Of a DNA stretch of 64,000 bases, positions 18,242-48,548 are shown one piece after another. Source of the DNA: an uncultured Gammaproteobacteria bacterium (GTDB lineage: Bacteria > Patescibacteriota > Patescibacteriia > CAZSQN01); NCBI GenBank assembly GCA_964609095.1, contig CAZSQN010000001.1:130354-194353 (forward strand). Reading direction: 5' to 3'. Position 1 is the stretch's first letter. Each line of letters starts with the position of its first letter. The position numbers and the translations under genes were made by a program. The notes below the pieces were generated by a model that was given only the letters and a program-made list of their open reading frames with translations, was not told the origin of the DNA and made no database searches.

Positions 18242-18545
18242 GTGCGCTCGCTTACCGACCGCACTCTCGTTCATGCTCAATGCTTCGCCTTCACTTTCGT
18301 GCAGTCGCCGCTCGCTGTTGCGTCTGTACAACAGAAGCAGCTATATTAGGGTGATTTTAAATTCTCTGCCCACAACTGTACACACAACGCTGGTTTTGTG
18401 CACGGTTGCGGGGGTGGGATTTCTTTCGCTCCGACTCAAGTCCGGGCGCTGCGTACCAGCCCGATAACATCGGGCTTACTCGCGTCCTTCAAATCCCGTC
18501 CTTGATCCGCGCAACACTGTACAGAAGAAATAGCTTCTGTCCACT

Positions 18546-18618
18546 GTTGCGGGGGTGGGATTTGAACCCACGACCTCCAGGTTATGGGCCTGGCGAGCTG
18601 CCACTGCTCTACCCCGCT
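18546..18618 (-). tRNA. Initiator tRNA-fMet (CAU)
   Basis: Closely parallels E. coli tRNA-fMet (GAGCAG D-region, CCCAUAA anticodon loop, UUCAAAUCC T-loop, CCCCGCAA 3' end); unpaired A1:A72; CCA not encoded. Confidence 0.8.
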
Positions 18619-31920: not shown

Positions 31921-32547
31921 ATGTCTATTTTTTTTCGGAAAAATTCTGCCAAAAGTTCTGGCGAGTTGCACCCGCGCGGCGCCATCCGCGCCGTTTTGGC
32001 CTATCTGGCGGAACTGGTGCAAGTGGTTTTGATTTCGCTTGCCATTATTATTCCCATCAGGTATTTGCTGGTTCAGCCATTTTACGTAAAAGGCGCGTCA
32101 ATGGAGCCGAATTTTTATGACAAGGAATATCTGATTATAGACGAAATTTCTTATCGTTTTAGGGAGCCGGAGCGGGGAGATATTGTTGTTTTCCGCTATC
32201 CGCTTGATCCAAGCCAGTTTTTTATTAAACGGATTATCGGACTTCCGGGCGAAAGAGTCAGGATTTCCGGCGGGCAGGTAACAGTTTTTAATTCGGCCAA
32301 TCCGCAAGGCAAAATAGTTGATGAATCAAAATATCTGGGCGGCGCTTTCACGGTAGGAGAAAAAACCATTACCCTTCGCGCCGATGAATTTTATCTTTTG
32401 GGAGATAACCGCAACGCTTCCATGGATTCCAGGGTTTTCGGCCCGGTCAAAAGAAAATTAATTATCGGCAGGGTCTGGCTGCGCGGCTGGCCCATAGATA
32501 AAGCAATGGCTTTTTCCGCCCCGTCGTATCCTGATTTGGGAAATTAA
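31921..32547 (+). CDS. lepB: Signal peptidase I
   Basis: GASMEP catalytic Ser box, N-terminal TM, KR box region. Confidence 0.85.
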   Translation: MSIFFRKNSAKSSGELHPRGAIRAVLAYLAELVQVVLISLAIIIPIRYLLVQPFYVKGASMEPNFYDKEYLIIDEISYRFREPERGDIVVFRYPLDPSQFFIKRIIGLPGERVRISGGQVTVFNSANPQGKIVDESKYLGGAFTVGEKTITLRADEFYLLGDNRNASMDSRVFGPVKRKLIIGRVWLRGWPIDKAMAFSAPSYPDLGN

Positions 32548-32556
32548 GATATTTTT

Positions 32557-33942
32557 ATGTCTCGCACGCCTAAAAAGAAAGAATTAAAAGCAAAAGAAAT
32601 CAAACCCGTCCTCAGCGCGCCTAAAGCGGAACCCAAAAAAACGTCAGGGCCCCAGCTTCTGCGCGGAATGAAGGATATTTTGCCTGCGGAACAAAGATAT
32701 TGGGATTTTATCCGCGAGCGCAGCGCCAAACTGGCCGGCGCTTATTCTTTTGAACGGATAGACACGCCTGTTCTGGAAGAAACAAAATTGTTTACCCGCG
32801 CGGTCGGCAAATACACTGATATTGTGGAAAAGGAAATGTTTACTTTTCTTGATGCCGGCGAAGAGTCCGTGACCTTGCGGCCGGAGGGGACGGCGCCGGT
32901 TGTCCGCGCCTACATCAATCACGGCATGCTGAATCTGCCCCAGCCGGTGAAATTATGGTATCTGGGCCCGATGTTCCGCTATGGGCGGCCGCAATCCGGC
33001 TCTTACCGCCAGTTTCATCAATGGGGGCTGGAAATTTTAGGCGAAGCCAAGCCGGCTGCCGACGCCGAACTGATTTTTTTGGCTTACACCCTTTGCAAAG
33101 AGCTGGGCTTAAGAGTTGTCGTGCATATCAACAGTTTGGGGCATCCCGGATGCCGCGAACAATATAAAAACGAATTAGTGGATTATTACAAAACAAAACG
33201 TTCGCAGATTTGCGATGACTGCAAAAGGCGCCTCTTAAGAAACCCGCTTCGCGTGCTGGACTGCAAAGAAGAAAAGTGCCAGCCCGTCAAGCAGGGCGCC
33301 CCGCAGATGGTAGACAAGCTTTGCGATGAAGACAGGAACCATTTTATGAAGGTTTTGGAATTTCTGGATGAAATTGATTTGCCTTACCAGTTAAATCCTT
33401 ATTTAGTCAGAGGGCTTGATTATAATACGCGCACCGTCTTTGAAATTTTTGCCCAAAATTCCGATGAATCAATATCTTCTTCCGCGCTTGGCGGCGGCGG
33501 GCGTTATGATGATTTGGCGGAACTGATGGGCGGGCGCCCTACGCCGGGAGTTGGTTTTGCTTTAGGTATTGAAAGATTGATTTTGGCCTTAAAGGAGCAG
33601 AACGTGAATGTCCCCGATCCCCAGCCGCCTTTTGTTTATCTGGCCCAGCTCGGCGACCATGCCAAACGCAAGGCCCTGACTTTGTTTGAAGAAATCAGAG
33701 CCGCCGGCATTCCGGCTACGGTTAATTTTGCCAAGGACTCGCTTAAAACCCAGATGGAGCTTTCAGCCAAGCTTAATGTAAGATACACGATTATTCTGGG
33801 GCAAAAGGAAGTGCTTGACGGAACAGTGATATTGCGCGATATGGATAGCGGAGTGCAGGAGGTCGTGGACAGAAAAAAGATAGTTGACGCGCTTAAAAAG
33901 AAACGCGCGGCGGAAAGTTTTGACCTTAATCATAAAGAATGA
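32557..33942 (+). CDS. hisS: Histidyl-tRNA synthetase
   Basis: Class II HisRS motifs (GMKDILP, FERIDTPVLEE, RPEGTAPVVRAY) plus C-terminal anticodon-binding domain. Confidence 0.88.
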   Translation: MSRTPKKKELKAKEIKPVLSAPKAEPKKTSGPQLLRGMKDILPAEQRYWDFIRERSAKLAGAYSFERIDTPVLEETKLFTRAVGKYTDIVEKEMFTFLDAGEESVTLRPEGTAPVVRAYINHGMLNLPQPVKLWYLGPMFRYGRPQSGSYRQFHQWGLEILGEAKPAADAELIFLAYTLCKELGLRVVVHINSLGHPGCREQYKNELVDYYKTKRSQICDDCKRRLLRNPLRVLDCKEEKCQPVKQGAPQMVDKLCDEDRNHFMKVLEFLDEIDLPYQLNPYLVRGLDYNTRTVFEIFAQNSDESISSSALGGGGRYDDLAELMGGRPTPGVGFALGIERLILALKEQNVNVPDPQPPFVYLAQLGDHAKRKALTLFEEIRAAGIPATVNFAKDSLKTQMELSAKLNVRYTIILGQKEVLDGTVILRDMDSGVQEVVDRKKIVDALKKKRAAESFDLNHKE

Positions 33943-33992
33943 TAAAGTATTATTGTTAATACCTTATTGTTAAACCCTAAGGGAGGTGTCAC

Positions 33993-34241
33993 ATGTCAGA
34001 AGTAAGAAAAAGAAAAGGAGAGAGTTTTGAAAGTTTATTGCGCAGATTCAGCCGTCGCGTACAGCAGAGCGGCCGTCTTTTGCAGGCGAAAAAAATCCGC
34101 TTTCACCAATCGCCGAAAACGCGGCGCGAGGTCCGCGATTCGGCGCTGCATCGGATTAAGACGCGGCAAAAAAGAGAATATCTTATAAAGACTGGATTGC
34201 TTAAAGAGGAAATACTGCCGCTTCGCGGACGCAGGAGATAG
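33993..34241 (+). CDS. rpsU: 30S ribosomal protein S21
   Basis: 82 aa basic protein, S21 pattern; RBS gggagg. Confidence 0.85.
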   Translation: MSEVRKRKGESFESLLRRFSRRVQQSGRLLQAKKIRFHQSPKTRREVRDSALHRIKTRQKREYLIKTGLLKEEILPLRGRRR

Positions 34242-34295
34242 AAAACGGGTTTTGGCAGAAAACTTTTATGGCCGCGGGGTCCGGTTATCGGTTAT

Positions 34296-34739
34296 ATGAG
34301 CATAGCTCTTAAAATAGCTGAAGAATTACAGCAGGCGCAAAAGGCAAAAAACGAACTCGTGGTTTCGGCGTTACGAGTGCTTAGGGCTGAAATGCTTAAT
34401 TCTGCCATAGCCAAAATGAAAAAAGAATTATCAGACGAAGAAGCAATCGGCGTGATCAAATCTCAAGTTAAGAGATTGCGGGAGGCGGTTGTTGATTTTG
34501 AGCGCGGAGGTCGGAGCGATCTGGCCGAAAAAAATCAAAAAGAGATAGGGGTTTTGGAAAAATATCTGCCCGCGGGAATATCCGAAGATGAAATTAGAAA
34601 AGAAGTTCAGACGGTCATCTCCGCCGGTTCATACAAGACAGCTGATTTTGGCAAAGCAATGAAGGAGGTAATGGCAAAATTAAAAGGAAAGGCGGACGGA
34701 GCAGTTGTGAGCCGGATTTTGAAGGAGACATTGAAATAA
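34296..34739 (+). CDS. GatB/YqeY domain protein
   Basis: 147 aa; YqeY pattern (ELVVSALRVLRAEM...KYLP). Confidence 0.8.
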   Translation: MSIALKIAEELQQAQKAKNELVVSALRVLRAEMLNSAIAKMKKELSDEEAIGVIKSQVKRLREAVVDFERGGRSDLAEKNQKEIGVLEKYLPAGISEDEIRKEVQTVISAGSYKTADFGKAMKEVMAKLKGKADGAVVSRILKETLK

Positions 34740-34773: not shown

Positions 34774-36531
34774 ATGCCTCGTCTAAACAAAAAAAAGATT
34801 AAATTTTTTCAATTGACTGTTATCACGGCAGCTTTTTTTGCCGTGTTTTTGTTTTTTTTGCCGCCGCTTTCGGCCTTGGCGTTGGAGACCGGATTGGAGC
34901 AGGTCGGCGAAACCATCTCGCTGCCCACGACTGACATCCGCATCGTTATCGTGCGCATAATCAATATCGCTCTTGGATTTTTAGGCATTATCGCGGTGCT
35001 GATTTTGCTCTACGGCGGATTCATCTGGATGACTTCCGGCGGCGATGAAAGAAAAGTGGAAACAGCCAAATCAATCATAAAAAACGGCGCGATCGGGCTC
35101 ATCATCATCATTCTTTCTTTTGCCATTACCAGATTTATTTTGACGCGGCTGGAGCAGGCGGCTTTTGGTCCCGGCGCTCCCGGGCGCGGGCGCGGCGGCC
35201 CCCCGATTGAACGGCTCTCCGGAGCGCTTGGCACGGGACCGGTGCAGATGCACTTCCCCCGGCGCGGAGCCACCAATGTGCCGCGCAATACCAACGTGAT
35301 GGTGACCTTTAAGGATTCCATTGATACCGCCACCGTGACCCCTGATAACTTCCGCGTGAGCAGATCCAGCGAGCGTGGCGGCCCCTTTGTTTCCGGTATT
35401 TTTAGATTTTCCGCTGACGGGAAAACGGCGGTGTTTGACCCGACAGAGCTTCTTGGCAGCGGGACCGATAATATTTTCTATACGGTCCGGCTGGATGGCG
35501 GGACCGGCGGGATAAGAAACAGCTCCGGCGAGGCGATTTTTTCCGGCTCGTTTGGCGAAGGTTATCTTTGGGAATTCCAGACCGGAACGTTTGTTGACGC
35601 CGCTCCGCCGCAGGTAATTTCGCGAGTTCCTTTCGGCGGCAGAAATCCGAGAAATATTTTGGTGCAGGTGAATTTTTCCGAGGCCATGGATCCGACTTCG
35701 GTTACCGGAGAAACAGAGGAAGGCGGCGCCGGTTTCCGCAATCTTATGGTGCGGGGAGGCGTCGCGCCGGTTGCCGGTTCGTGGACCGTCTCCAATGAAT
35801 ATCGGACAGTTGAATTTCAGACAGCTGATCTCTGCGGGACAAATTCCTGCGGCGGCAATGTGTACTGCCTGTCAAGCAATACGGAATTTACAGCCATCAT
35901 TGTGGCCGCGACTTTGGGCGCGGAACCGCCCGCTTCTTCCGGATTCCCTTATGACGGAGCGGTTGACGCTTCCGGCAATTCGTTAGACGGAAACAACGAC
36001 AATTTGGCCGCGGGCCCTCCGGCAGACAGCTTTCTTTGGGATTTTAGCACTGATAACACCATTGATTTGCGGCCGCCGACGTTGGAGATTTTGTCCCCGG
36101 GCATAGATGAAGGCAATGTTGCCGTGGACCGGCCGATTGAGATGACTTTTTCTAAAATTATGAGCGGCAGTTCGCTGACCAATGAAAATATCTCGCTTGG
36201 CAGCGAGCCATTGTATGAATTCTGGTACTCGCTCCGGAGCGAATTATTGGATGAGCGCAATGAGGTTGCCACTTCCAGCGCCCCGGTTAAAACAAGAGCG
36301 CTCATAGAGCACGGCGTGCTCGCGTCTTCTTCCGAAACGACCAGATACGATTATTTCCCGGGAGCGACCTCGGGCGTGAAAGATGTTTTGCAAAATTGTT
36401 TTTTCCCCGGAGCCGGGCCAAGAAGCGGTTCTGACGCCGGAGGCGGGGTTTGCGCCACGAGCCGTTCCGAACCGTATTGCTGCAACGGCAATCCTTCGGC
36501 AACGGCTTGTCCGTATTTGCGAGCGCCATGA
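34774..36531 (+). CDS. Secreted/membrane-anchored surface protein: VirB2/TrbC-pilin-like N-terminal module + Gly/Pro linker + Ig-like (SbsA/Big_5-type) domains
   Basis: 585 aa; signal peptide then two hydrophobic helices around WMTSGGDE; N-terminal about 120 aa about 70% identical to N-terminus of the downstream giant protein; stop overlaps next start (ATGA). Confidence 0.7.
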   Translation: MPRLNKKKIKFFQLTVITAAFFAVFLFFLPPLSALALETGLEQVGETISLPTTDIRIVIVRIINIALGFLGIIAVLILLYGGFIWMTSGGDERKVETAKSIIKNGAIGLIIIILSFAITRFILTRLEQAAFGPGAPGRGRGGPPIERLSGALGTGPVQMHFPRRGATNVPRNTNVMVTFKDSIDTATVTPDNFRVSRSSERGGPFVSGIFRFSADGKTAVFDPTELLGSGTDNIFYTVRLDGGTGGIRNSSGEAIFSGSFGEGYLWEFQTGTFVDAAPPQVISRVPFGGRNPRNILVQVNFSEAMDPTSVTGETEEGGAGFRNLMVRGGVAPVAGSWTVSNEYRTVEFQTADLCGTNSCGGNVYCLSSNTEFTAIIVAATLGAEPPASSGFPYDGAVDASGNSLDGNNDNLAAGPPADSFLWDFSTDNTIDLRPPTLEILSPGIDEGNVAVDRPIEMTFSKIMSGSSLTNENISLGSEPLYEFWYSLRSELLDERNEVATSSAPVKTRALIEHGVLASSSETTRYDYFPGATSGVKDVLQNCFFPGAGPRSGSDAGGGVCATSRSEPYCCNGNPSATACPYLRAP

Positions 36532-39500
36532 AAATAAATTATCGCCAGCTTAAAATATTATTTTTTATCGCCCTTGCTTTGGTCGGGGTTGTTGCTTTTT
36601 TATCATCTCCTGTTTTAGCCGCCGAGCTGAACCTTGGTTTGGAGCCGGTTGGCGCGGAGATAGCTTTGCCAATCGCCGATATTAGGGTGGTCATTGTCCG
36701 CATTATCAATATAGCGCTGGGCTTTCTTGGCATACTCGTGGTGCTGCTTATGCTTTACGGCGGTTTTACTTGGATGACCGCCGGCGGCGATGAGAAAAAA
36801 ATAGAAACAGCCAAAAAGATCATAACCAACGCGGTCATCGGTTTAATCATCATCATTCTTTCTTTTGCCATCTCTTCCTTTATATTAAGGCGGCTGCAGG
36901 AAGCGGTTGGCGGCGCCGGTCCGGGCGGGCCTGCGGGCGGCCGCGGCCCCGGAGCCGGCGGTTTGCCGGCGGGCGCGTTTTATACCCGCGCCATTACGCC
37001 TTCGGGCGCTACCTCCATCCGCAATGTGACGGTGCGGGCCATATTTTCTTCAAATGTTGATTCCGCAACATTGTCCGGAAATTTAACCGTGGCCAGAGCC
37101 AGCGACAGCGCGGTTGTTTCCGGACGGCTTACCGCCTCTTCCAATGTCGCGGAATTTGTGCCGGATACTCCCTGTCCGGATGCCAACAATGATGGCGCGC
37201 CTGACGCGCCGGCTTGCTTTTCCGCCGACACTGATTTTAGAGTAATTGTTTCCACGGGCCTGCGCGACGACAGGGGCCGTCCGCTCCAATGCGGAGGGCT
37301 GGCGCCAAGCTGTGAAGGCGCTTTCCGCACCGGAAGTTTGGTGGATACCGCGCCGCCCTCAGTGCAGGTGACTTCGCCTGATGACGGCGCCAATGTTCCG
37401 GCTGACTCGCTTGTTCCCCTGCAGGCGTTTGGCAGCGATGATTCCGGCGTTTCCTATATAGAATTTTCAGTTGACGGACGCGTCATTGACAGCGACGCGC
37501 CCACCGGCGGCTATGCCGATGTCGAATGGGATTCAACCGGCGCGTCCGCGGGAAGGCACACGATTTCCGCCAGGGCTTATGATTTAGACAATAATTCGGC
37601 TGTTTCTTCGCCGGTTAATGTTTCAGTGCGGCCGGCATACTGCTTTAACGGCGTGCTGGACGGAGATGAAACGGCGGCTGATTGCGGCGGCTCCTGCGGA
37701 GCTTGCGCCGCGAGCGGCTGTTCATCCGATGCCGACTGCTCGTCAGGCAATTGCAGCAACGGCATTTGCGTTGAAACGCCAAGGATAGACGAAGTCGCGC
37801 CTTTGGACGGGCAAGTCGGAAGTTTGATTACCATCTCCGGAGCATTTTTTGGGGATAGCCCCGGCAGAGTGTTGTTCCGTTCCGCTACTGGCGAAACAGT
37901 GGCCACCGGCGGCGTTTGTTCTGACTATTGGCGCGATAATCAGATTGTGGCGGCCGTTCCCGAAGGCGCGATTGACGGTCCCATTAGAGTTGAAGCGTCC
38001 TCCGGAGAAAGCGACAGCACATCTGACGCGCGCGGTCCGGTGATGCCTGATTTTGACGTCAATAATGTTTTAAGGCCGGGTATTTGCAGAATTGTGCCGG
38101 CCTCGGCGCGACCAGATGAAACATTTACTTTGGAAGGAACGGGTTTTGGCTCCGCGGCTCCGGGGGCGAACGTGAGTTTTGGCGGAAGAACGGCCGTTAC
38201 CTCCTCTTGGGCCGACGCGTCAATTGCGGGAGCGGTGCCGCGGATTGCTTCCGGCCGCGTTCCGGTTCAGGTTACCGTCGGCGGCGGCAGTTCCAATCCT
38301 GTTTATTTTAATGTTTTGTCTCTCTCCGCCGGCAGAGAGCCGCAGATTTTAGAAATCAACCCATCCGCCGGGCCCAAAGGCGAATACATCACTTTAAGCG
38401 GAGATAATTTTGGCGAAACAGTCGGCACGGTTACCTTTCGTAATCCCGTGACCAATGATGAGGCGCGGGCTGACGTTGATTTGCCCGAAGCGTGCGCGAC
38501 TGATTTCTGGCGCAACAACTCAATCACGGTTAAAGTTCCGCGTCGTTACAATGACGGCAGAACCGAACTTTCCGAGTCAGCGCATTCCGTAACCGTTGTT
38601 CGTTCCGACGGAGCGAATTCCAACGCAATTGATTTTGCGGTTACTGCCGGAACGGCAAAACCTGGCCTCTGCGCCATTAATCCTGATAATGGCCCGGCCG
38701 GAACGGATATTTTACTTTCCGGAGAGCGGTTTGGGGTCGCCAGAGGCGCGGTTATTTTTAGTCAAAATCAGCGCGTGAGCCCGCCGGAGGGCGCGTGGAA
38801 TGATGAAGAAATCCGCGTTGCCGTTCCCGAAGCGGCCGTTACCGGCCCGGTAAAAGTGGTTGTCGGAAGTCAGGAATCAAATCCTCTTAATTTCGCGGTG
38901 CAGAATTGCAATCAAAGCGCTTGCGACGCCGGATTCTCCTGCTGTCAGAGTTCGGGCACCTGCGTGAGGGAAGGGGAATCCTGCGCCGGAGCCGCCCTTT
39001 CCGGCGGTTATGCCTGGCGCATATCAACCGGCCCGATACCCACGACTCCGCGCGTGGTGGAAGAATGCCGCGAAGCTGTTTCGCCGTCTCCTTCGCCTTG
39101 GGACGCAAGACGCGGGGGCAATAATGTTTGCGTCAACGCGGCCATAAATGTGCGTTTTACGGTTGATATGGATTCCTCCTCGCTTGTTCCCGGAAATATT
39201 GTGGTTGAACGTTGCCTTGGGGAGGGGGCCGAGCCGTGCGCCAGTAGAGAGCTGGTGACAGGACGCGTGGACGCGTCAGTCAGGGCAATCCGTTTTGTCC
39301 CTCTTGCCTCTTTGAATGCCAACGCAACTTATCTTGTCACTTTAACCACCGGATTGCGGGCGGCCGGAGCCGCCGGCGGCGCCATGGAAGAAAATGCCGC
39401 CCGCTGCGGAGCCGGCAATGCTTATTGTTTCAGATTTAAGACCAGGCCGAACGCGGAAAATTGCGCCATCGGCAGTTCCGTTATGGATCCGGCTGATTTT

Positions 39501-42500
39501 GTTTCCAGAGAACAGGAGGACTTGGCTTATGTCGCCTCGGCTTTGGCCGGCGACGATATCTGCGTTTCGTTAAACGCTGATGCTTATGATTGGATTTGGA
39601 GCGTGCGCGAAGCGGACGGCTCACTGTTATCCGGAATCAATCCCGAAGCCAGAGTTGCCAATAATGACAATCTAGGCGGCGGAGCTGACGGGCTTTCTCC
39701 TGACGGACGGGTAGACAGCCGCCAGAGCGTCAGCACTCTTGCCGAAACCATTCCTGATCCGCCTGTTTACGTGCATGCGGCGGCGGCGGAAAGGACCGGC
39801 CGCGGCCGGCTGACAATTGATTTTACCGACCCGGAGATTGTGGAAAGCTGGCCTGCCTGCGACTCGGCCTGCGTCAACGCCGAGGTGGCGGCAAGATTCA
39901 ATACGGCCATGGACGCGGCAAGTTTTGCCGGAAACGCGTTTTTGCAACGTTGCGCCAACGAGTCGTGCCGGCTTTTTGATCAGGATATCTCGGTTTCGCC
40001 GTCTTATGACGAAGACGCTCGGATTTTAAGAATTGAACATCCTGCTTTGGAACCCTCGCGTTATTATCGCGTCAGGATTGGCAATGCGGCCAGATCGCGG
40101 TCCGGCGTGAATTTAACCCGTCTTAATTATGGAAATTATTATTCCTGGATTTTCCGCACCAAAGACGACAGCGCCGGCTGCGGCGTGGCGTCGGTGGATG
40201 TGTCTCCGGCAAGCATCCAGCTTTATTATCTTGGCGCCAGGCAAACGTTCAGGTCCGCGCCAATATCGCCTCCTGATGAATGTTCGCCCTCCGGCCAAAG
40301 ATTGACCCCGACCGATTATTCATGGGGCTGGGATGTCAGTAACAGAAATGTGGCGGAACTTTTGGATGACGGCGCTTTAAATGTTCTGCCGACTTCCGGC
40401 GTTAACGGCTGTTCTGATAAATGTCTGCGCGTCGGTTCGTCTGCCGGAATTCCGGTTTGCGGAAACGGCGGAGCTCCGGAGCGGGGCGAGGATTGCGATG
40501 ACGGAAATACTGTCTCGCGCGACGGATGCAGCGAGATTTGCTTAAGCGAGGGTTCTGATTTTGGCGGGAGCGACTGCGGCGACGGAAATGTCGGCGTGGG
40601 CGAGGATTGCGATGACGGAAACACGACTGCCGGAGACGGATGCGGTTCTTATTGTCTGAATGAGGGCTCAACCGCCGGCGGGTCGCTTTGCGGAAATAAC
40701 GATCTCGGGGACGGCGAGGATTGCGATGATGGAAATACTACCGGCGGCGACGGCTGCAGCGCTGAATGTTTGGACGAAGGTTCTATTAAGGGCCCCATGT
40801 CTGTTTGCGGAAATAGGGTGATAGAAGCCGGCGAGGATTGCGATGATGGAAACACTGCTGCACGCGACGGCTGTTCAAGCAGGTGCCTTAACGAGGGAAG
40901 ACCCGCCTGCGCCAACGGCAACAGAGCCAATTGCTGCGGTAATGGAATCACCGACAATTTTGAGGATTTTGATGACGGCAATACAACTTCCGGCGACGGC
41001 TATTCCAATCGCTGTCTGGCCGAGGGCTCGTCGATTTCTTACAACTCTATTTGCGGCAATGGTTCAAACGAAAACGACCTTGAGGCCGGCGAGGAGTGCG
41101 AGTTTACTTCGCGCGATAATCTGGTTGACCCGCTTCAGTACGCGGAAGCGCGAAATCAGGGGGAAACTTCCGTGAACGCTTCAACTGCCGGCCAAAGAGG
41201 ATCGGCCAATCTTCGCGTCCAATGCGTCTGCCAGAATGATTCTATGTGCGCTTCCGGCGGATTTCCGCCGGGTCTGGGCTGCGGCGCTGACAAATGCTGT
41301 TCCGCCCGTCCGAGAGTTGAGGAGGTTTCGCCTTTGGACGGTTCGCGAGACGCGTGCAGAAACGCGCTCCTTACAGCCAAGTTTTCCACTTTGATGGACG
41401 CAACTAGTTTTACTTCCGCCACGGTGCGGCTTGATTCCGCGGCTGTTGCGGGCGCGTGTCCGCAAGACAGCGCTCTGGTGGACGGGGTCTGGTGCGAAGG
41501 AGGCGCGGGCGAACTGCGTTTGGGCGCGCGCGCTGTTACTGAAGTCGTTGGCGAGATGGCGGAAGAAAAAACAATTTTGCAGATTTCCGGCGCCTCGGCT
41601 TTGCGCGCCAACACGGGTTATCGCGCGCGCATCATCGGCGATCCCAATATCGGCGATAACGCGACTCAAGGAGTAAAGAGCAAAACGGGCGTGGGCATGG
41701 ATGGCAATTACATCTGGACGTTTAGCACAGGCAGTGATATCTGTTCTTTGGACGAAGCGGAAATAGCTCCGTCTCCTGTTACATTTTTAACCACTGCTGA
41801 TCCGGATGGCACTAAGACGGTTGCCGTCCGCGCTTTAAGCAGAAGGAACGGCAATCTGGTGGAGATAGCCGGCATGCCAGAATATGATTGGGAATGGAGC
41901 TGGGCTGATTCAGACGCTATAGAGCCGGAATCAAAAATCATATCCCGCTCTGCCGGCGCGAGAAGAGAAGAACAAACAATTTCCAGCCGCCCAAGAAACG
42001 GCCAGATTACTTTGACCGCTACGGCGGAAATTATTACCGACACGTTTTTTACGCCCACTACCGCGAGGCGGTTAGTCGGGCCCGATGTTATTCCCGGTCG
42101 GCGCGTCAGTGATACCTCTTTGGTTATAGTAAATCTTTGCGAAAATCCCTGGCCGGAGCGGATAGGCGGTTTTTGGGAGCCGTTTACCGACGGGGATATG
42201 AATTTTTCATTATTTTATTGCCGCGACCGCGGCAATCAGGGAACTGCCGATGACCTGCCCGGGCTTATTGCCACCCGCGTTCCGGCTCCGCCTTCTCCAA
42301 ATATCATCCGTGAATATCTGTTTGCGGCCAATCCTTGTCCGGAAGATGGCACCGGTTGCGAAGCCGGGGACGCGCTGGGTATGAGGATAGCGGCTAACGG
42401 CGAGCATCTTTCCCCCCGCGACTGGTATTACCGGCAGGGATTCCGCGGTTCTCCAAGTTCCCGGGTTATTGACGGTTACGCCGGCTTGGAAGATGGAAGA

Positions 42501-45500
42501 ACGGTTTATGTAAACGCGGCAAACAAAATAGGCGACCCGGTTTATACCAACATTTATATTGTTTCTTATAACGAAGGCGCCGGAGATGATGTTGTGGCCG
42601 CGCGCGATCAGATTCTTGCCAACTGGAAACTTTCAACCAATGTCGGCTCCGCCCGGCGCTGCGTTGACGCTGACGGATTGCCTATGACTGTCGGTGAAGG
42701 AGCGGAGAGAAACCCGGCAGTATGTTTAAGCGACGCGGACTGCCGCGGAATCGGCGAGCCGCCGCGGGACGGATTCTGCGACGCCTCCGGAGACAAATTG
42801 CGCCGCGACGCAATCCGGCTCGGCGATGTAAGGTCAATGGAGATTGCTTTAAACGCTTATAAAAACAGCCACAAGCATTGTTCCAGAAATGTTGACAGGA
42901 TTTGTATTATTGACAGCAATTGCCCGAGCGGCGAGCAATGCGTTGGCGATTATCCCAGAATGACCGCCGGCACTTTTATTCCGTCGTTATCCGTTTCAAA
43001 GTGGCCTTCGTGGCAGAATCTGGGCAGCGAGCTCGGCGTCACGCTCCCCAATGACCCTTTGAATAATTATTCATCTTGTCCCGACGGCGCTCTTCGCGCG
43101 ACCTGCTGGAATTCGCAAAATCAAACTTACGCCTGCAATGAATTTTCAAACGTGTATCATTACCGAAATCGCGGCGGCACGCGCTATGATTTGTCCGCGG
43201 AGCTGGAATTTGGACCCTTGCCTCATGAGGTGGCGGATGGCGTTGCTGATTCCGCCCTCCGCGTTAATTTGTGGGCGCCGCTTCCGACAGGGCCGATAAT
43301 TCCCGGAGAAACAACTTATGAGCTTAATTTCAACGAACAATGCCAAGGGGTAACTCTTTCCGCAAATAATCTTTGCGGCGACGGAGTGGTTGGTCCGGAT
43401 GAGCAGTGCGAGGCGCCTTCATCAGATATTGTTTCTTGCGAAGCTGGCGGCAGAGCCGGGTTTGCCAATCTGACCTGCGGGGCTGATTGCCGGTGGTTTG
43501 GAACGCAAGGGTGCCAGACCGGCAGATGCGGAGACGGAGTAAGGCAGGAGCCGGAAATTTGCGATGACGGAGTGAGAAACGGCTCTTACGGCCGCTGTAA
43601 TGTTTCCTGTACCGGAATCGGCGATCGCTGCGGCGACGGCGGGCGGCAGGGGCCGGAAGTTTGCGATGAGGGCCAATTAAACGGCCAATACAATCATTGC
43701 GCTTGGGATTGCCGGAGCAACCCCGGAACTTATTGCGGAGACAAAGTAAAAAATGGGACCGAAGAATGCGATGGAGAAAAAGGCGTGGCCAATGTAGAAG
43801 GTCTTCCCGTTTGCGGAGCGAACGCGCAAGGATTTCCAACCGGCCGCAATTGCCGGAGCGATTGCGGTTGGAGCGGCTGCGAGGCAATGGGATTTTGCGG
43901 CAATGGCCTTAAGGAAGGAAGGGAAGAGTGCGATGACGGAAACGCCAATAATACCGATGGCTGCATTATTATTTCCGGCCGCGAGAGCGATCTGGCTGTT
44001 TCTTGCAGAAATGCCCGTTGCGGCGACGGGTTTACTTATAATGGAACAGAGCTTTGCGATGCCGGGCCGGAAAACGGCGTTTCCTGCGTTCCCGGATACG
44101 GCGTTTCCTGCAATTACTGCACCAACCTCTGCAATCCGGCAACTATCTCCGGAGGTTCCTGCGGGGATGGACGAGTTTCCGGGCCGGAAGTGTGCGATGG
44201 CAATCTTAAAGCCAATAATCAAGCGCTGCTTAATACAGAAACCTGCCATGGCAATTGTCTGGCAATTTGTCCGCCGACTTTTGAAGAACGAGGCGCGACT
44301 TGGAGAAAGGCGGCTTTGGCAGATGGAGTTGCTCCGTCGCCGTCAGCATCCGTGGAAGTGGCCGCGAATGAAGAAGCGACCTTGATTCTTCCGGCCTGCC
44401 GCAGTTCTTCGGGAGAGCGCCGTTGTATTGGCGGGACAAATGCCGGAAATGTATGTACGGGCGAAATAGAAGGGTTTTGTGATGTGGACTGCGCTTATCA
44501 ATGTCCGGGCGGGCGTTGCGGTGAAGCTCATCCCATTACTGCCGACCTGGCTTTTACTGAAGCTGAACTGTCGCCGATTGACGTGGTGTTTGTGACGGAT
44601 CTCTCAGGCTCCATGAATGTGCCAGACGCTTCTTGCGATAATCCTGACGAGAGTAAAAATTGCGATATGCCCGGAGGCGGAACAGATACCTGGGAAGGGA
44701 AAAAATGTTCTGTTGACGCTGATTGCGTGCGACCGCGGCCAAGAAGAAGCAGCATAGTCGGCACATGCGTGACTGCCGATACCCGTATAGAATGCGCTAA
44801 AGACGCGCAGAAAAAAGCCATTGATTCGCTTTTTGACGCTTATCCGCGCGGGCTTATACATATAGGACTCGTGTCTTTTAAGGGCAATTCGGCAACAATG
44901 GATACGCCGGAAGTGTGCGGAGAAGGCAGGTTATGCGATGATCCAACCGCGCATCGGCGCGCGCTTAAAGATATTGTTGATGCTTATGTCGCGAGCGGAG
45001 GCACGCCGACCTCGCGCGGAGTTGATGACGCCCGTTGTATCCTTTTAGGATCTCGGCCCGATTCGCAAGATGTTTTGCATAATAACCCTTTTCCTAATTG
45101 TCCCGATGTTCCTATTACCAGAGATGTTGAGGATTTAAGAAATAATATCAAGACCGTTCTTTTGATGAGCGATGGCGCTCCGTCAGGAGGATTTAATCCT
45201 GCCGCCGCCGCAACTGCGATTAAAACCAGCCATACTTTTACCGAAGGGAACGAAGAAGTGGTTATTCCGCCCTCCTATGTTTATTCTATGGCTTTTACCA
45301 ATTCCACCGCGCTTATTAAAGATATGATTGATTGGAGCAGCGATTGCCGCACATTTGGAGTTTCCGAATGGAATGCCGGAGAATGCCTTTTCTCCGATGG
45401 CGCGGCCGGAAGCGCTGATGACCTTAACGCGCATAACGCGGATACGACGCACGAGGAATACGGTTATTCATCAACGACGGACCTTACTCCGCTTTACACT

Positions 45501-45719
45501 GCCATTATCGGATCAATCACCGGCGTTCGTGTTATTTTAGAAAACGGCAATGAAGCGGCCGCGACCGAAGTTGCCCCGGGCGGAGACAGGCCGCTTTTCG
45601 TGCCGGCTAATTTTAGCTGTAATCCGAATAGGGCCACCGAACTTGCCGGCCGCATCCTTTATAAAGGAAGGGGAACAATGAGAGTATCGGACACAAAGTT
45701 GTCCGCTTGCTTCCCGTGA
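36528..45719 (+). CDS. Giant (about 3063 aa) multidomain surface adhesin-like protein
   Basis: Start ATG 36528 overlapping upstream stop; N-terminal VirB2/TrbC-like module; Ig-like domains (about 37000-37650, 39100-40100); 4-5 IPT/TIG domains (about 37780-38900); six tandem Myxococcus-type Cys-rich repeats CGxGxxExGEDCDDGNTxxGDGCSxxCLxEGS (40458-41130); second Cys-rich repeat bank (about 43375-44215); C-terminal VWA domain with MIDAS DLSGS (about 44575-45330). Confidence 0.85.
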   Translation: MKINYRQLKILFFIALALVGVVAFLSSPVLAAELNLGLEPVGAEIALPIADIRVVIVRIINIALGFLGILVVLLMLYGGFTWMTAGGDEKKIETAKKIITNAVIGLIIIILSFAISSFILRRLQEAVGGAGPGGPAGGRGPGAGGLPAGAFYTRAITPSGATSIRNVTVRAIFSSNVDSATLSGNLTVARASDSAVVSGRLTASSNVAEFVPDTPCPDANNDGAPDAPACFSADTDFRVIVSTGLRDDRGRPLQCGGLAPSCEGAFRTGSLVDTAPPSVQVTSPDDGANVPADSLVPLQAFGSDDSGVSYIEFSVDGRVIDSDAPTGGYADVEWDSTGASAGRHTISARAYDLDNNSAVSSPVNVSVRPAYCFNGVLDGDETAADCGGSCGACAASGCSSDADCSSGNCSNGICVETPRIDEVAPLDGQVGSLITISGAFFGDSPGRVLFRSATGETVATGGVCSDYWRDNQIVAAVPEGAIDGPIRVEASSGESDSTSDARGPVMPDFDVNNVLRPGICRIVPASARPDETFTLEGTGFGSAAPGANVSFGGRTAVTSSWADASIAGAVPRIASGRVPVQVTVGGGSSNPVYFNVLSLSAGREPQILEINPSAGPKGEYITLSGDNFGETVGTVTFRNPVTNDEARADVDLPEACATDFWRNNSITVKVPRRYNDGRTELSESAHSVTVVRSDGANSNAIDFAVTAGTAKPGLCAINPDNGPAGTDILLSGERFGVARGAVIFSQNQRVSPPEGAWNDEEIRVAVPEAAVTGPVKVVVGSQESNPLNFAVQNCNQSACDAGFSCCQSSGTCVREGESCAGAALSGGYAWRISTGPIPTTPRVVEECREAVSPSPSPWDARRGGNNVCVNAAINVRFTVDMDSSSLVPGNIVVERCLGEGAEPCASRELVTGRVDASVRAIRFVPLASLNANATYLVTLTTGLRAAGAAGGAMEENAARCGAGNAYCFRFKTRPNAENCAIGSSVMDPADFVSREQEDLAYVASALAGDDICVSLNADAYDWIWSVREADGSLLSGINPEARVANNDNLGGGADGLSPDGRVDSRQSVSTLAETIPDPPVYVHAAAAERTGRGRLTIDFTDPEIVESWPACDSACVNAEVAARFNTAMDAASFAGNAFLQRCANESCRLFDQDISVSPSYDEDARILRIEHPALEPSRYYRVRIGNAARSRSGVNLTRLNYGNYYSWIFRTKDDSAGCGVASVDVSPASIQLYYLGARQTFRSAPISPPDECSPSGQRLTPTDYSWGWDVSNRNVAELLDDGALNVLPTSGVNGCSDKCLRVGSSAGIPVCGNGGAPERGEDCDDGNTVSRDGCSEICLSEGSDFGGSDCGDGNVGVGEDCDDGNTTAGDGCGSYCLNEGSTAGGSLCGNNDLGDGEDCDDGNTTGGDGCSAECLDEGSIKGPMSVCGNRVIEAGEDCDDGNTAARDGCSSRCLNEGRPACANGNRANCCGNGITDNFEDFDDGNTTSGDGYSNRCLAEGSSISYNSICGNGSNENDLEAGEECEFTSRDNLVDPLQYAEARNQGETSVNASTAGQRGSANLRVQCVCQNDSMCASGGFPPGLGCGADKCCSARPRVEEVSPLDGSRDACRNALLTAKFSTLMDATSFTSATVRLDSAAVAGACPQDSALVDGVWCEGGAGELRLGARAVTEVVGEMAEEKTILQISGASALRANTGYRARIIGDPNIGDNATQGVKSKTGVGMDGNYIWTFSTGSDICSLDEAEIAPSPVTFLTTADPDGTKTVAVRALSRRNGNLVEIAGMPEYDWEWSWADSDAIEPESKIISRSAGARREEQTISSRPRNGQITLTATAEIITDTFFTPTTARRLVGPDVIPGRRVSDTSLVIVNLCENPWPERIGGFWEPFTDGDMNFSLFYCRDRGNQGTADDLPGLIATRVPAPPSPNIIREYLFAANPCPEDGTGCEAGDALGMRIAANGEHLSPRDWYYRQGFRGSPSSRVIDGYAGLEDGRTVYVNAANKIGDPVYTNIYIVSYNEGAGDDVVAARDQILANWKLSTNVGSARRCVDADGLPMTVGEGAERNPAVCLSDADCRGIGEPPRDGFCDASGDKLRRDAIRLGDVRSMEIALNAYKNSHKHCSRNVDRICIIDSNCPSGEQCVGDYPRMTAGTFIPSLSVSKWPSWQNLGSELGVTLPNDPLNNYSSCPDGALRATCWNSQNQTYACNEFSNVYHYRNRGGTRYDLSAELEFGPLPHEVADGVADSALRVNLWAPLPTGPIIPGETTYELNFNEQCQGVTLSANNLCGDGVVGPDEQCEAPSSDIVSCEAGGRAGFANLTCGADCRWFGTQGCQTGRCGDGVRQEPEICDDGVRNGSYGRCNVSCTGIGDRCGDGGRQGPEVCDEGQLNGQYNHCAWDCRSNPGTYCGDKVKNGTEECDGEKGVANVEGLPVCGANAQGFPTGRNCRSDCGWSGCEAMGFCGNGLKEGREECDDGNANNTDGCIIISGRESDLAVSCRNARCGDGFTYNGTELCDAGPENGVSCVPGYGVSCNYCTNLCNPATISGGSCGDGRVSGPEVCDGNLKANNQALLNTETCHGNCLAICPPTFEERGATWRKAALADGVAPSPSASVEVAANEEATLILPACRSSSGERRCIGGTNAGNVCTGEIEGFCDVDCAYQCPGGRCGEAHPITADLAFTEAELSPIDVVFVTDLSGSMNVPDASCDNPDESKNCDMPGGGTDTWEGKKCSVDADCVRPRPRRSSIVGTCVTADTRIECAKDAQKKAIDSLFDAYPRGLIHIGLVSFKGNSATMDTPEVCGEGRLCDDPTAHRRALKDIVDAYVASGGTPTSRGVDDARCILLGSRPDSQDVLHNNPFPNCPDVPITRDVEDLRNNIKTVLLMSDGAPSGGFNPAAAATAIKTSHTFTEGNEEVVIPPSYVYSMAFTNSTALIKDMIDWSSDCRTFGVSEWNAGECLFSDGAAGSADDLNAHNADTTHEEYGYSSTTDLTPLYTAIIGSITGVRVILENGNEAAATEVAPGGDRPLFVPANFSCNPNRATELAGRILYKGRGTMRVSDTKLSACFP
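40458..41130. repeat. Tandem about 117-bp coding repeats (Cys-rich module) inside the giant gene
   Basis: gaggattgcgatga(c/t)ggaaa(t/c)ac recurs at 40490, 40598, 40715, 40832 with conserved spacing; six protein-level copies. Confidence 0.8.
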
Positions 45720-45794: not shown

Positions 45795-46664
45795 ATGACT
45801 GACGAATTACAATCGCAACCAATAGCTACGGAGACAATGCCGCCAGAAGCAGAAATAACGGCGATTAGGCGCAAGAAGCCGATTGTTTTGGGCTTGGTTT
45901 CCATCCTTTTAATTGTTATAATAGGAGGCGGAGTGATTTATTTTTTCAGAAATAAAATAGGCCTGCCCGGCAGGCCCGTTCCCTTGCCAAGGGTAATGGA
46001 AAAAATAGAAAATGGAAGAGCCCGCTGCACCGCGGCGCGGGATAAAGAAAAGTGTTTGTCTGAACTTACTTTGGATGAGGCGGTCGCCGGCAAGCAGGTT
46101 GCGGCTTGCGAAAAAGTGGCGGATGCTTCTTTGCGCGACGGCTGTTATGACACAATCGCGCGCGAACTCGGCGATGAGAAGATGTGTACCCGCGTTTCTC
46201 TGCCCGCTGCCGCTGATGATTGCGCCGGCGCCATAATTTTTGCCAAATCCAAAAAGTCAGACGATATGGCTTTGTGCGCGGCCATTGCTTCGCCGCGATG
46301 GCAAGACGGTTGTTATAGATTTATTTGGAGCGAACGGGGAACCAGAGAACTTTGCGAAACGGCTGGAGATAAGCGCGATCAGTGTCTTAATTTTATTATA
46401 ACGAGCGAAGCTGCGGGGAGCGGAGAGCCGGCATTGTGCGCTGAAATTTCCGTTGAAGAAGAACGGGTTGCTTGCGAAGAGCTTGCCAGCGAAGCCGCGG
46501 CCGAAACGGCTTCTGCCCGCGACGATGACGGTGACGGTCTTACAAATGCGGAGGAAGCAAGATACGGAACAAATCCAAATAATCCAGACACGGATGGTGA
46601 TGGATTTAAGGACGGGGACGAGGTAAAGGCGGGGTATAACCCAAAAGGACCGGGACGTCTATGA
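45795..46664 (+). CDS. Membrane-anchored protein with novel Cys-rich repeats and C-terminal thrombospondin-type-3 Ca-binding repeats
   Basis: 289 aa; N-terminal TM; about 5 repeats C-x7-9-(R)DGCY; C-terminus DDDGDGLTNAEE...DTDGDGFKDGDE...GYNPKGPGRL. Confidence 0.6.
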   Translation: MTDELQSQPIATETMPPEAEITAIRRKKPIVLGLVSILLIVIIGGGVIYFFRNKIGLPGRPVPLPRVMEKIENGRARCTAARDKEKCLSELTLDEAVAGKQVAACEKVADASLRDGCYDTIARELGDEKMCTRVSLPAAADDCAGAIIFAKSKKSDDMALCAAIASPRWQDGCYRFIWSERGTRELCETAGDKRDQCLNFIITSEAAGSGEPALCAEISVEEERVACEELASEAAAETASARDDDGDGLTNAEEARYGTNPNNPDTDGDGFKDGDEVKAGYNPKGPGRL

Positions 46665-46755
46665 TAGAATCTGGAATCTGGAATCTGAAATTTAGAATTT
46701 GAGGTTTAAATTAAAATTCTAAATTCTATATTCTAAATTCTATATTCTAAATTTT

Positions 46756-47442
46756 ATGTTCGAAAACACTCCGCCTAATTTACCAACCGCTAAAGAGCCG
46801 GAAGATATTTTTGGCGAAAAAAAATCGGCTCCAGCCGGAGCCGGAGCGCCGTCCGCGCCGGGAGCTCCATCTGCGCCGCCGCGTCCCGCTCCTCCGTCTC
46901 GTCCGCTAGTTCCTCCGCCTTTGACGCCGCCAGCCGCCCCCAAGCCGCCTGCGCCAGGAGCAGCGCCGTCTCGGGCAACTCCGGCAGCGGTTGAAAAGCC
47001 GTCAAAATCATGGAAAAGGGTGGTTTTATTTGTCGTTGTTTTGGCAGTTTTAGGCGGCGGAGGTTATTTTGCTCTGACTTATTTTGGTTTGTTGGGTCCT
47101 AAGAAGCCGGTTCCTTCGCCGGAAAAAGAAGAAACATTGCCGCCGCCTCCGCCCCCAGCGCCGGTTCAAGAAGAAACTCCGGCTCCGCCGCCTCCGCCCC
47201 CAGCGCCGGTTGATTCTGACGGAGACGGGTTGACCGATGAAAATGAGCAAAGCTTGGGCACTGACCCGCTTAAAGCCGATACTGACGCTGACGGACTTTT
47301 GGACAATGAAGAAGTGCGCATTTATAAAACAGACCCGTTAAATTCTGACACTGACGGCGATGGCTATAAAGACGGCGATGAGGTCAGAAATAGTTATAAT
47401 CCGAACGGTCCGGGCCGGCTTTTCCAAGTGCCGACACAGTAA
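46756..47442 (+). CDS. Proline-rich membrane-anchored protein with TSP3-like Ca-binding repeats
   Basis: 228 aa; Pro/Ala-rich N-term, one TM, PPPPPAP linkers, DSDGDGLTDENE...DTDADGLLDNEE...DTDGDGYKDGDE...SYNPNGPGRL C-terminus. Confidence 0.6.
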   Translation: MFENTPPNLPTAKEPEDIFGEKKSAPAGAGAPSAPGAPSAPPRPAPPSRPLVPPPLTPPAAPKPPAPGAAPSRATPAAVEKPSKSWKRVVLFVVVLAVLGGGGYFALTYFGLLGPKKPVPSPEKEETLPPPPPPAPVQEETPAPPPPPPAPVDSDGDGLTDENEQSLGTDPLKADTDADGLLDNEEVRIYKTDPLNSDTDGDGYKDGDEVRNSYNPNGPGRLFQVPTQ

Positions 47443-47519
47443 ATTGGAATAAAGAATTAAGAATTATGAATAATGGAAGTAGAATTCTTAATTCTTGATT
47501 CATAATTCATGATTCAAAA

Positions 47520-48548
47520 ATGATGGAACCGATTAAACCGCCATTAACTCCGTCTGCTCCATCCGCGCAGGCAATTTCCGAACCGGAGATTAAAACAATG
47601 CCCGAACGATTTATCGGCGCTCCTCTTAAAGCGCCTCCGAAACCGGTAGAAAAGGTTGTTGTGGTTGAAAAAGTAATAGAAAAAAAAGTTTTACCCCCGG
47701 CTCCTTTGCCTGTTGGTCTTAAAAAAGCGGGTTTTCCCAAGTGGGCAATAGCGGCGATACTTCTTTTAATAATCGGCGGCGGAGCAGGGCTTTGGTATGC
47801 GGTTTCATTAACTCCGGCCAAGCTGGTTGCGGTTACCCCGCCTCCTCCGCCGGCTCCATTGCCGCGCTGTTCCGACGGACTTGATAATGACGGCGACGGT
47901 TTGATTGATAATGCGGATCAGGGCTGCGAGAATCCAAGCGACAATGATGAAACTAATCTTCCGCCGCCCCCGCCGCCTCCGTCAGGCCCAAAGGCCGGCG
48001 CTGACAGCGATGCCGACGGTTTAACAGATGAAGAAGAAAAGGTTTATGGGTCCAATTTCCAAAATTCGGACTCGGATGGCGACGGATTTATTGATGGGGT
48101 AGAGTTGTTTCATCTGTATAATCCGGCCGGTCTGGCTCCGGTGCGTTTGATTGATACCGGTTCCGTCACGCTTTTTAAAGACCGTCTGGAGCGTTATCAA
48201 ATTTATTTTCCAAAACCATGGAGCGCTGTTGAAGCCCCGGACAGCAAAACAGCCGCTTTCCATTCTTTGGGAGAAGACGCGATGGAAGTTCTCGTGGAAG
48301 AAAACATTAACCGCCTTCCTATCACCAACTGGTATCTGGAGCGCAATCCAGGCGTCAAACCCGCGGAACTTGAAACATTTATAACCAAGAGTAATTTAGA
48401 CGGAGTAAAAAGCCCTGATCGGCTTACGGCTTATATCTCGGCCAACAGCTCGGTTTACGTCATCACCTACCGGCTGGGAGCCGATGAGACGATTAATTTT
48501 AGAAAAACGTTTGAGATGATGTTAAATAGTTTTACCCGATTGCGATGA
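47520..48548 (+). CDS. Proline-rich membrane-anchored protein with TSP3-like repeats plus extra C-terminal globular domain
   Basis: 342 aa; CSDGLDNDGDGLIDNADQGCENPSDNDE, DSDADGLTDEEE, DSDGDGFIDGVE, LYNPAGLAPVRL then about 140-aa domain; stop overlaps ybeY start (ATGA). Confidence 0.6.
   Translation: MMEPIKPPLTPSAPSAQAISEPEIKTMPERFIGAPLKAPPKPVEKVVVVEKVIEKKVLPPAPLPVGLKKAGFPKWAIAAILLLIIGGGAGLWYAVSLTPAKLVAVTPPPPPAPLPRCSDGLDNDGDGLIDNADQGCENPSDNDETNLPPPPPPPSGPKAGADSDADGLTDEEEKVYGSNFQNSDSDGDGFIDGVELFHLYNPAGLAPVRLIDTGSVTLFKDRLERYQIYFPKPWSAVEAPDSKTAAFHSLGEDAMEVLVEENINRLPITNWYLERNPGVKPAELETFITKSNLDGVKSPDRLTAYISANSSVYVITYRLGADETINFRKTFEMMLNSFTRLR

Follow-up and report, generated by a model that had tools for sequence, protein, structure and literature searches.

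Within a 64,000-nucleotide stretch of contig CAZSQN010000001.1 from a Patescibacteria genome (hereafter the window, meaning the whole of the DNA analysed), two adjacent open reading frames (ORFs) on the same strand appear to encode a pair of surface proteins that begin with a common membrane module, resembling the VirB2 pilins of type IV secretion systems (T4SSs), and continue into large ectodomains. ORF1 lies at 34774-36531 (+) and encodes 585 amino acids (aa), and ORF2 lies at 36528-45719 (+) and encodes 3063 aa. A preliminary description of this DNA, made from the sequence alone, had reported a 585-aa and an approximately 3063-aa ORF overlapping as ATGA, and both ORFs and the overlap at 36528-36531 were verified. 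The long open frame of ORF2 spans 36450-45719. Judged by sequence, its start is ATG 36528, which yields 3063 aa, and not TTG 36450, because the resulting N-terminus (MKINYRQLK followed by a hydrophobic stretch) is collinear with that of ORF1 and of the homologues. The tight coupling of the two genes suggests that their products are synthesised and function jointly. A scan for promoters and terminators gave counts that were not above chance. The pair and its N-terminal features are as follows.

34774..36531 (+): ORF1, 585 aa; signal peptide, VirB2-like pilin hairpin, Gly/Pro linker, Ig-like (Big_5/CopC-like) domains and Cys-rich C-terminal knob
36528..45719 (+): ORF2, 3063 aa; signal peptide, VirB2-like pilin hairpin, long multidomain stalk and C-terminal VWA head with a metal-ion-dependent adhesion site (MIDAS)
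36528..36531 (+): stop codon of ORF1 and start codon of ORF2, overlapping as ATGA, read directly in the sequence
34774..34881 (+): ORF1 signal peptide, aa 1-36, with a probable signal peptidase I site between ALA and L, judged from the sequence
34930..35166 (+): ORF1 VirB2-like hairpin, aa 53-131 (helix 1, loop TSGGDERK, helix 2), from PF18895 and AlphaFold2
36675..36911 (+): ORF2 VirB2-like hairpin, aa 50-128, from PF18895; 77% identical to the ORF1 hairpin

The signal peptide and the hairpin are the only hydrophobic segments of either protein. At the other end, ORF1 finishes in ...KLSACFP and ORF2 in ...CPYLRAP, and neither terminus contains a C-terminal sorting motif (LPXTG or another known anchor) or a hydrophobic tail.

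The N-terminal module belongs to a family of VirB2-like pilins

The two proteins share 59% identity over aa 4-129, a value that rises to 71% in the mature part of the module and to 77% in the hairpin, and falls to 22% in the signal peptides. The preliminary estimate of about 70% identity over the first 120 or so residues thus holds for the mature module. No further copy of the module was found in the window beyond those of ORF1 and ORF2. The AxA/ALAQ position of the ORF1 signal peptide is conserved in two family alignments, and cleavage probably occurs there. No class III signal peptide, nor a motif in which G is followed by F/M-TLxE, was present at the N-termini of ORF1 and ORF2, which carry ordinary Sec signal peptides with AxA sites. 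The topology first read from the sequence, a signal peptide and two helices separated by a short loop, is also what AlphaFold2 predicts from a 64-sequence alignment: a signal-peptide helix at 6-28 and helices at 55-87 and 92-131, with a confidence score (pLDDT) above 90 in the hairpin.

In family searches with hidden Markov models (HMMs), the module of ORF1 matched PF18895 (T4SS_pilin) at 32.1 bits over aa 59-122, above the gathering cut-off of 26.6; that of ORF2 scored 27.8 bits when the first 400 aa were scanned and 24.3 bits on the whole protein. We take PF18895 to represent the VirB2-like pilins of Patescibacteria, Mollicutes and Gram-positives. The NCBIfam model NF045849 (Mbov_0395 family pilin-like conjugal transfer protein) gave 33.3 bits for ORF1 and 30.9 for the other copy, both below its 40-bit cut-off, and the two modules are related to this family but outside that equivalog. 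A database search with the module returned 113 proteins, nearly all of them free-standing Patescibacteria PF18895 proteins of 105-160 aa, the closest of which (P0002) is 69% identical to the ORF2 hairpin. In a profile search the best 120 matches were short pilins only, and a few of them also match PF04956 (TrbC); since these top 120 are all short pilins, this search was set aside as a census of fusion architectures. Alignment showed that the invariant Gly and the FxWMT positions are common to the hairpin and the free-standing Patescibacteria pilins. The module alignment was also compared by hhalign with seven annotated VirB2/TrbC genes from conjugative MPF_T plasmids, and the two aligned with 81% probability (E=1.2e-5) over 62 columns, with helix, loop and helix in register. 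PF18895 has been used as the VirB2 homologue of Patescibacteria T4SSs in a published survey (PMC12102498). On the strength of the PF18895 match, the hhalign result and this published use, we accept from sequence comparison that the N-terminal module is a VirB2-like pilin module and a member of the Patescibacteria PF18895 family. The VirB2/TrbC-like reading given in the preliminary description is therefore supported by a family match above the cut-off, by free-standing pilin relatives and by the profile alignment. Both proteins depart from the size of the free-standing PF18895 proteins (~100-160 aa), as 455 residues in ORF1 and 2,936 in ORF2 lie beyond the pilin module.

Ectodomains, conserved stalk and exchangeable head

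Beyond the module, the following regions were recognised.

35224..36528 (+): ORF1 ectodomain; Ig-like domains of beta-sandwich type at aa 151-531, then a Cys-rich C-terminus in which the motifs QNC and PYCCNG are conserved
36999..40160 (+): ORF2 proximal stalk; Big_5 (weak), Big_7 (aa 277-348), TIG array (~aa 440-800) and Big_5 (aa 863-950, 1100-1211)
40458..41057 (+): first block of Cys-rich acidic repeats in ORF2, aa 1311-1510, made up of five CGxG..E(D)CDDGN units; TIGR02232 (E=3.8e-39), DUF4215 and motif count
41307..41729 (+): ORF2 Big_5 domain, aa 1594-1734, by Pfam scan
41745..43397 (+): ORF2 conserved central region, aa 1740-2290, of no known family
43395..44207 (+): ORF2 Cys-rich repeat block 2, aa 2290-2560; motif count and weak DUF4215 matches
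44496..45716 (+): C-terminal head of ORF2, aa 2657-3063; a VWA domain that has the MIDAS motifs and contains a Cys-rich insertion, then a small C-terminal domain

The ORF1 family comprises 745 cluster representatives at E<1e-30, mostly of 550-700 aa, which align end to end with many invariant columns, Cys positions among them; one member is annotated just as 'Ig-like domain-containing protein'. Several members were seen by eye to carry extra C-terminal or inserted regions, namely P0186 (2209 aa), P0245 (1134), P0171 (990), and P0156 and P0202 (~840). In P0186 these are added Cys-rich repeats and a long additional C-terminal part, in P0171 some 450 added residues whose repeats suggest a beta-propeller, and in P0245 a long insertion. 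By sequence, the pilin-plus-Ig scaffold has evidently been reused with different heads.

The adhesin architecture attributed earlier to ORF2, with Ig-like and TIG domains, Myxococcus-type Cys-rich repeats and a C-terminal VWA/MIDAS domain, was borne out. The domain scan gave three Big_5 domains, at least three TIG domains, Big_7, DUF4215, and TIGR02232 in six stretches, with aa 158-348 occupied by the weak Big_5 and Big_7. The previous count of twelve or more Cys-rich repeats is roughly right, as a motif count gave nine clear ExCDxG cores in two blocks, and a few degenerate ones were seen by eye. Between these blocks, aa 1740-2290 contain 43 invariant columns across 18 orthologues, many of them Trp, Cys and Tyr; this region had no Pfam match and no match among PDB sequences, and may be an undescribed domain. 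The overall layout, in which repeated stalk domains (Big_5, Big_7, TIG and Cys-rich) are followed by a terminal VWA, is that of a fibrillar adhesin.

The assignment of the head is clear at the family level only. Taken alone, the ORF2 head scores 19.4-19.7 bits against VWA_2, below the cut-off of 27. The alignment of the head family conserves the MIDAS motifs DxSxS, GxTPT and SDG in the right order, here as DVVFVTDLSGSM, GGTPT and LMSDG, and Pfam VWA or VWA_2 is passed by 8 of 10 ORF2 orthologues (best 6.5e-15). The family profile matches solved VWA structures of collagen VI (1.8e-12), SpaC (8.7e-10), Streptococcus sanguinis PilB (1.8e-8) and Mfa5 (3e-8), as well as GBS104 and RrgA. A homologue search with the C-terminal head returned one fragment, and the orthologues came from loci fetched as described below. 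Residues 150-2550 of ORF2 (~2,400 residues) align to 50-68 of 70 giant orthologues, and a VWA-type head is present in 14 of the 31 that are complete; as far as alignment can tell, the stalk is therefore conserved and the head exchangeable.

A conserved cassette with a small pilin in a third of loci

A scan of one genome per species found 140 relatives, and 80 loci were fetched, mostly from Candidatus Uhrbacteria, Falkowbacteria, Komeilibacteria and other Patescibacteria, so that together with the source window 81 loci were examined and the module HMM was run on all their ORFs. The cassette genomes that are present in the published table are placed there in class ABY1. An ORF1-type gene precedes a giant module-bearing gene in 78 of the 81 loci. 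The ORF1-type genes (O1) consist of the module and 450-530 aa, reaching 864 aa in two loci, and the giant genes (O2), 31 of which are complete, have a median of ~3,200 aa. In 27 of the 81 loci the cassette also contains a gene for a small free-standing pilin, and the gene orders are distributed as follows.

O1-O2: 51/81 loci
small pilin-O1-O2: 14/81 loci
O1-small pilin-O2: 13/81 loci
other orders: 3/81 loci

Where the embedded small pilin lies between ORF1 and the giant gene (loci L055-L059, L062, L064-L066, L075, L081 and L088) it has a strong HMM score of ~100, and where it lies upstream of ORF1 (L021, L031, L032, L036, L038, L048, L050, L063, L071, L073, L074, L077 and L090) the score is weak, at 22-47; the source window has neither arrangement. 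Among the 78 junctions scored after ORF1, 14 are ATGA overlaps, two are -1 overlaps and 39 are gaps of 1-10 nucleotides. Upstream, the same-strand genes encode signal peptidase I (64 of 80 loci), HisRS (69), S21 (76) and YqeY (75), and the same synteny was found on two metagenome contigs. The comparison of loci indicates that the cassette is vertically inherited and syntenic in at least 80 species. The survey of homologues that the preliminary description had proposed thus shows that the cassette is not peculiar to one genome.

The hairpin is also the most conserved segment of the ORF1 family, in which mean pairwise identity falls from 50% in the hairpin to 41% in the ectodomain and 25% in the signal peptide. 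Within one genome, the hairpins of ORF1 and ORF2 have a mean likeness of 0.557, compared with 0.47-0.50 for orthologous hairpins between genomes, and the likeness of the source pair (77%) is at the upper end of the within-genome values. This pattern in the alignments suggests that cooperating parts have co-evolved or undergone gene conversion. Since the hairpin is best conserved and the hairpins within a genome are more alike, it is further suggested that the hairpin makes specific contacts and that ORF1 and ORF2 share partners.

Some observations accompany the cassette. The upstream order is signal peptidase I, HisRS, S21, YqeY and then the cassette, the four genes lying at 31921-34739 (+) in the source window; the constant nearness of signal peptidase I, the expected cutter of pilin signal peptides, may or may not matter. 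Directly after ORF2, at 45795-48548 (+), are three genes (289, 228 and 342 aa), each encoding a protein whose N-terminus is cytoplasmic and is followed by a single transmembrane segment, a Pro-rich spacer and TSP3 calcium-binding repeats. Homologues of the three trail the giant gene in 12, 11 and 8 of 80 loci, and they may be part of the same surface apparatus. Many public records with the cassette (L014, L017, L024, L025, L027, L028 and others) are titled 'uncultured Gammaproteobacteria bacterium', and the 7 kb contig of L047 is titled 'Candidatus Methylomirabilis sp.'; this looks like mislabelling or mis-binning rather than a real taxonomic spread. In locus L001 (JGI Ga0496406_001369) the cassette is split into short called genes (151, 235, 269, 210 aa and more), which look like the product of assembly frameshift errors and not like real small genes. 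In gene catalogues, the giant members of this family are probably often split into pieces.

Proposed role of the pair and alternative explanations

We tentatively propose, with slightly less than even confidence, that ORF1 and ORF2 are modular VirB2-type pilins which co-assemble with a T4SS pilus and act as pilin-anchored fibrillar adhesins. Each precursor would be exported through the Sec pathway, and signal peptidase I would cleave it behind the AxA site. The two hydrophobic helices would then insert as a hairpin with the charged loop GGDE[R/K]K in the cytoplasm, as expected from the sequence and from established pilin topology. With the N-terminus outside after removal of the signal peptide, and the C-terminus outside as in VirB2/TraA, the whole ectodomain would be extracellular. 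Following the Gly/Pro linker it would form a rod, which in ORF1 consists of about four Ig-like domains and the Cys-rich knob, and in ORF2 of ~2,500 residues of Ig-like domains, TIG domains and disulfide-rich repeats ending in the VWA/MIDAS head, where a ligand would be bound via a metal ion. It can be hypothesised that the T4SS machinery takes up both proteins along with the ordinary small pilins, because their hairpin is nearly identical to that of free-standing pilins, and builds them into a short pilus, either at its tip or at scattered positions along its length. VirB2/TraA subunits expose their C-terminus on the outside of the assembled pilus, and a C-terminal extension is for this reason geometrically compatible with a tip or sparse subunit. 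The pair would then serve as the T4SS pilus adhesin, a role filled elsewhere by VirB5 or PrgB-type adhesins.

Co-assembly is favoured by the small pilin embedded in 27 of the 81 loci, by the conservation of the cassette and by genes that overlap or nearly abut. The role as adhesin is favoured by a type of VWA head that is shared with the tip adhesins of sortase and type V pili and with a modular type IV pilin. The published background is as follows. VirB4 is present in 2,417 of 3,035 Patescibacteria assemblies (PMC12102498), which makes a T4SS likely in the source genome, and in 1,135 of 1,948 assemblies a PF18895 protein is encoded next to virB4 (PMC12102498). Patescibacteria have arrays of 2-11 VirB2-like pilin genes, and in Southlakia epibionticum, the one species tested, these pilins and the T4SS are essential (PMC12102498; PMC10633639; PMC12857230), and VirB2-like proteins form pili in, and matter for, Gram-positive conjugative T4SSs (10.64898/2025.12.18.695078). 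The survey of Patescibacteria T4SSs detected no adhesins, PrgB-like ones included (PMC12102498). A broader proposal, which we consider somewhat doubtful, is that throughout the ABY1-type Patescibacteria (Uhrbacteria, Falkowbacteria, Komeilibacteria and relatives) the T4SS pilus is the host-attachment organelle, whose adhesin is built on a conserved pair of VirB2-type pilins of ~600 and ~3,000 aa with exchangeable heads such as VWA.

Several results weigh against co-assembly with a T4SS pilus. The preliminary description had pointed to T4SS components as a check, and none lies within the window: Pfam scans of its 42 main ORFs identified no VirB4, VirB6 or VirD4, VirB3/PrgI was likewise not found among them, and the rest of those scanned, the pair aside, have housekeeping or envelope functions. 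The free-standing pilins closest to the module are themselves encoded by orphan genes, away from VirB4. Five cassette-bearing ABY1 drafts are listed in the supplementary table of the survey (PMC12102498), and three of these are VirB4-positive and two negative, the negative genomes being incomplete drafts. A 3,000-residue extension cannot occupy every subunit of a pilus, and such a protein would accordingly be a minor or tip subunit at best. The strong conservation of most of ORF2 between species is less typical of host-specific adhesins. As for the pilin identity itself, of the families named in the preliminary description TIG and TIGR02232 matched, whereas PF04956 (TrbC) had no match on the window proteins; NF045849, as given above, stayed below its cut-off. 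Of the structural comparison with VirB2/TraA that it had suggested, the confident AlphaFold2 hairpin stands, and comparison with the solved folds of conjugative pilins (TraA, VirB2, TrwL, CedA1) was uninformative: fold searches matched generic helical hairpins with no conjugative pilin near the top, the fold being too simple to discriminate. A sequence-profile search of the module against PDB chains gave no pilin, returning only spurious designed 'Pizza' proteins.

The explanation that survives best beside the one we propose is that the hairpin derives from a pilin and now only anchors fibrillar, wall-crossing proteins in the membrane by its two helices, with no T4SS involved. Under this explanation, which is quite conceivable though we lean against it, ORF2 with its VWA tip would remain an adhesin, as an N-terminal anchor with a distal C-terminal head fits a fibrillar adhesin for which a pilus is not needed. 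It would readily accommodate a cassette that sits in a housekeeping neighbourhood far from T4SS genes, nearest free-standing pilins that are orphans away from VirB4, and the two of five cassette-bearing drafts that are VirB4-negative in the published table, although these two are incomplete. It is harder to reconcile with the behaviour of the hairpin, which as the best conserved segment of ORF1 appears to be more than a passive anchor, retains the pilin signature residues and shares up to 69% identity with free-standing pilins from other species, and with the small pilin genes embedded in a third of the loci.

It is also conceivable, but improbable, that the pair is a structural component of the envelope, S-layer-like or spanning the wall, instead of an adhesin for another cell. 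The conservation of ~2,400 residues of ORF2, the vertical inheritance of the cassette beside core genes in 80 species, and the calcium-binding TSP3-repeat membrane proteins encoded just downstream would all suit such a scaffold. A single terminal VWA/MIDAS on a long stalk is nevertheless the layout of an adhesin, with pilus tip adhesins as its best structural relatives; the variability of the head (VWA-type in 14 of 31 complete orthologues) fits ligand diversification, and no lattice-forming domain was recognised in the pair. Finally, it is very unlikely that the VirB2 likeness is convergent or compositional, the mere outcome of a signal peptide and two hydrophobic helices: the generic fold matches, the PDB profile search without a pilin and an hhalign probability of 81%, of a kind that transmembrane composition can inflate, would agree with this, but PF18895 is matched above its curated cut-off, some close homologues also match PF04956, the family adjoins virB4 in many assemblies (PMC12102498) and the alignment with VirB2 keeps both helices and the loop in register.

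Comparison with known systems

The closest relatives of the proposed pilin-anchored adhesins by family are the PF18895 pilins and pilin arrays of Patescibacteria T4SSs (Wang et al. 2023, PMC10633639; Quinonero-Coronel et al. 2025, PMC12102498), which belong to the same HMM family and have in common with the pair a signal peptide and two-helix hairpin, the signature residues and tandem genes for pilin modules. They differ in that they stand alone at ~105-160 aa, whereas ORF1 and ORF2 carry large ectodomains and lie beside housekeeping genes and not virB4. The small two-helix pilins of monoderms, PrgF_B2 and VirB2-like Gram-positive proteins (10.64898/2025.12.18.695078), are predicted to polymerise on a VirB6 pentamer, and this assembly offers a model for how the hairpin of ORF1 and ORF2 could assemble; these proteins are of 50-150 aa, are encoded next to virB6 and have no reported ectodomain fusions. 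VirB5, at the tip of Gram-negative pili, and PrgB of enterococcal conjugation share the proposed role in target-cell contact by a T4SS, but are separate proteins without a pilin module, and no sequence or domain relation of either to ORF1 or ORF2 was found.

By design, the nearest analogue is PilB of S. sanguinis (PDB 7b7p), a modular type IV pilin that shares with ORF2 an N-terminal pilin module and a C-terminal VWA/MIDAS domain. This is a likeness of design and not of family, since PilB is of the type IV class, is processed by prepilin peptidase and has no giant stalk between pilin and VWA. The tip adhesins RrgA (2ww8), SpaC (6m48), GBS104 (3txa) and Mfa5 (6to1) likewise present a VWA/MIDAS head at the far end of a filament, to which they are attached by sortase isopeptide bonds or strand exchange, whereas head and stalk of ORF2 are one polypeptide that would be rooted by the hairpin. 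Fibrillar adhesins (Monzon and Bateman 2021, PMC8286594) also have a Big_5/Big_7/TIG stalk with an adhesive domain at one end and one anchor at the other; there the anchor is a C-terminal LPXTG or another known type and the stalk evolves fast, while here the anchor is an N-terminal VirB2-like hairpin and the stalk is conserved.

No description of a VirB2-type pilin fused to a large ectodomain was found in open-access papers and preprints, and an earlier description elsewhere is possible. Within this literature, in which pilin arrays are described, the novelty claimed in the preliminary description is supported. As T4SSs and VirB2-like pilins are widespread in Patescibacteria, the pair represents a concrete candidate for a host contact device. 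If the proposed role is correct, this would be the first fusion of a conjugation-type pilin with an adhesin and the missing adhesin of the essential Patescibacteria T4SS, and the idea of the modular pilin, so far confined to type IV pili, would be extended to the unrelated VirB2 class. The hairpin would also define a new type of anchor for fibrillar adhesins. Were it merely a membrane anchor, the cassette would still represent a widespread and so far undescribed family of surface proteins of the candidate phyla radiation.

Base composition and other features of the window

The GC content is 0.53-0.58 across 35-45 kb and ~0.45-0.52 in the flanks, in agreement with the earlier remark that the giant gene is more GC-rich than its neighbours. 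At third codon positions (GC3) ORF2 has a value of 0.540, inside the housekeeping range of 0.48-0.58, and at second positions (GC2) 0.538 against 0.35-0.45 elsewhere. The excess is attributed to amino-acid composition because it lies at codon position 2. A foreign origin of the GC-rich stretch was discarded on these grounds, GC3 being that of housekeeping genes and the cassette being syntenic in 80 species. Cumulative GC skew climbs almost monotonically over 1-64000 and most genes are on the + strand, which is consistent with a window that belongs to one replichore, without an origin or terminus inside. A 152-aa ORF at 9291-9749 (+), with no Pfam match, lies between an rRNA adenine dimethylase gene and a PaaX-like gene, and two tRNA-Met genes, 300 nucleotides apart, are located at 18165-18618.

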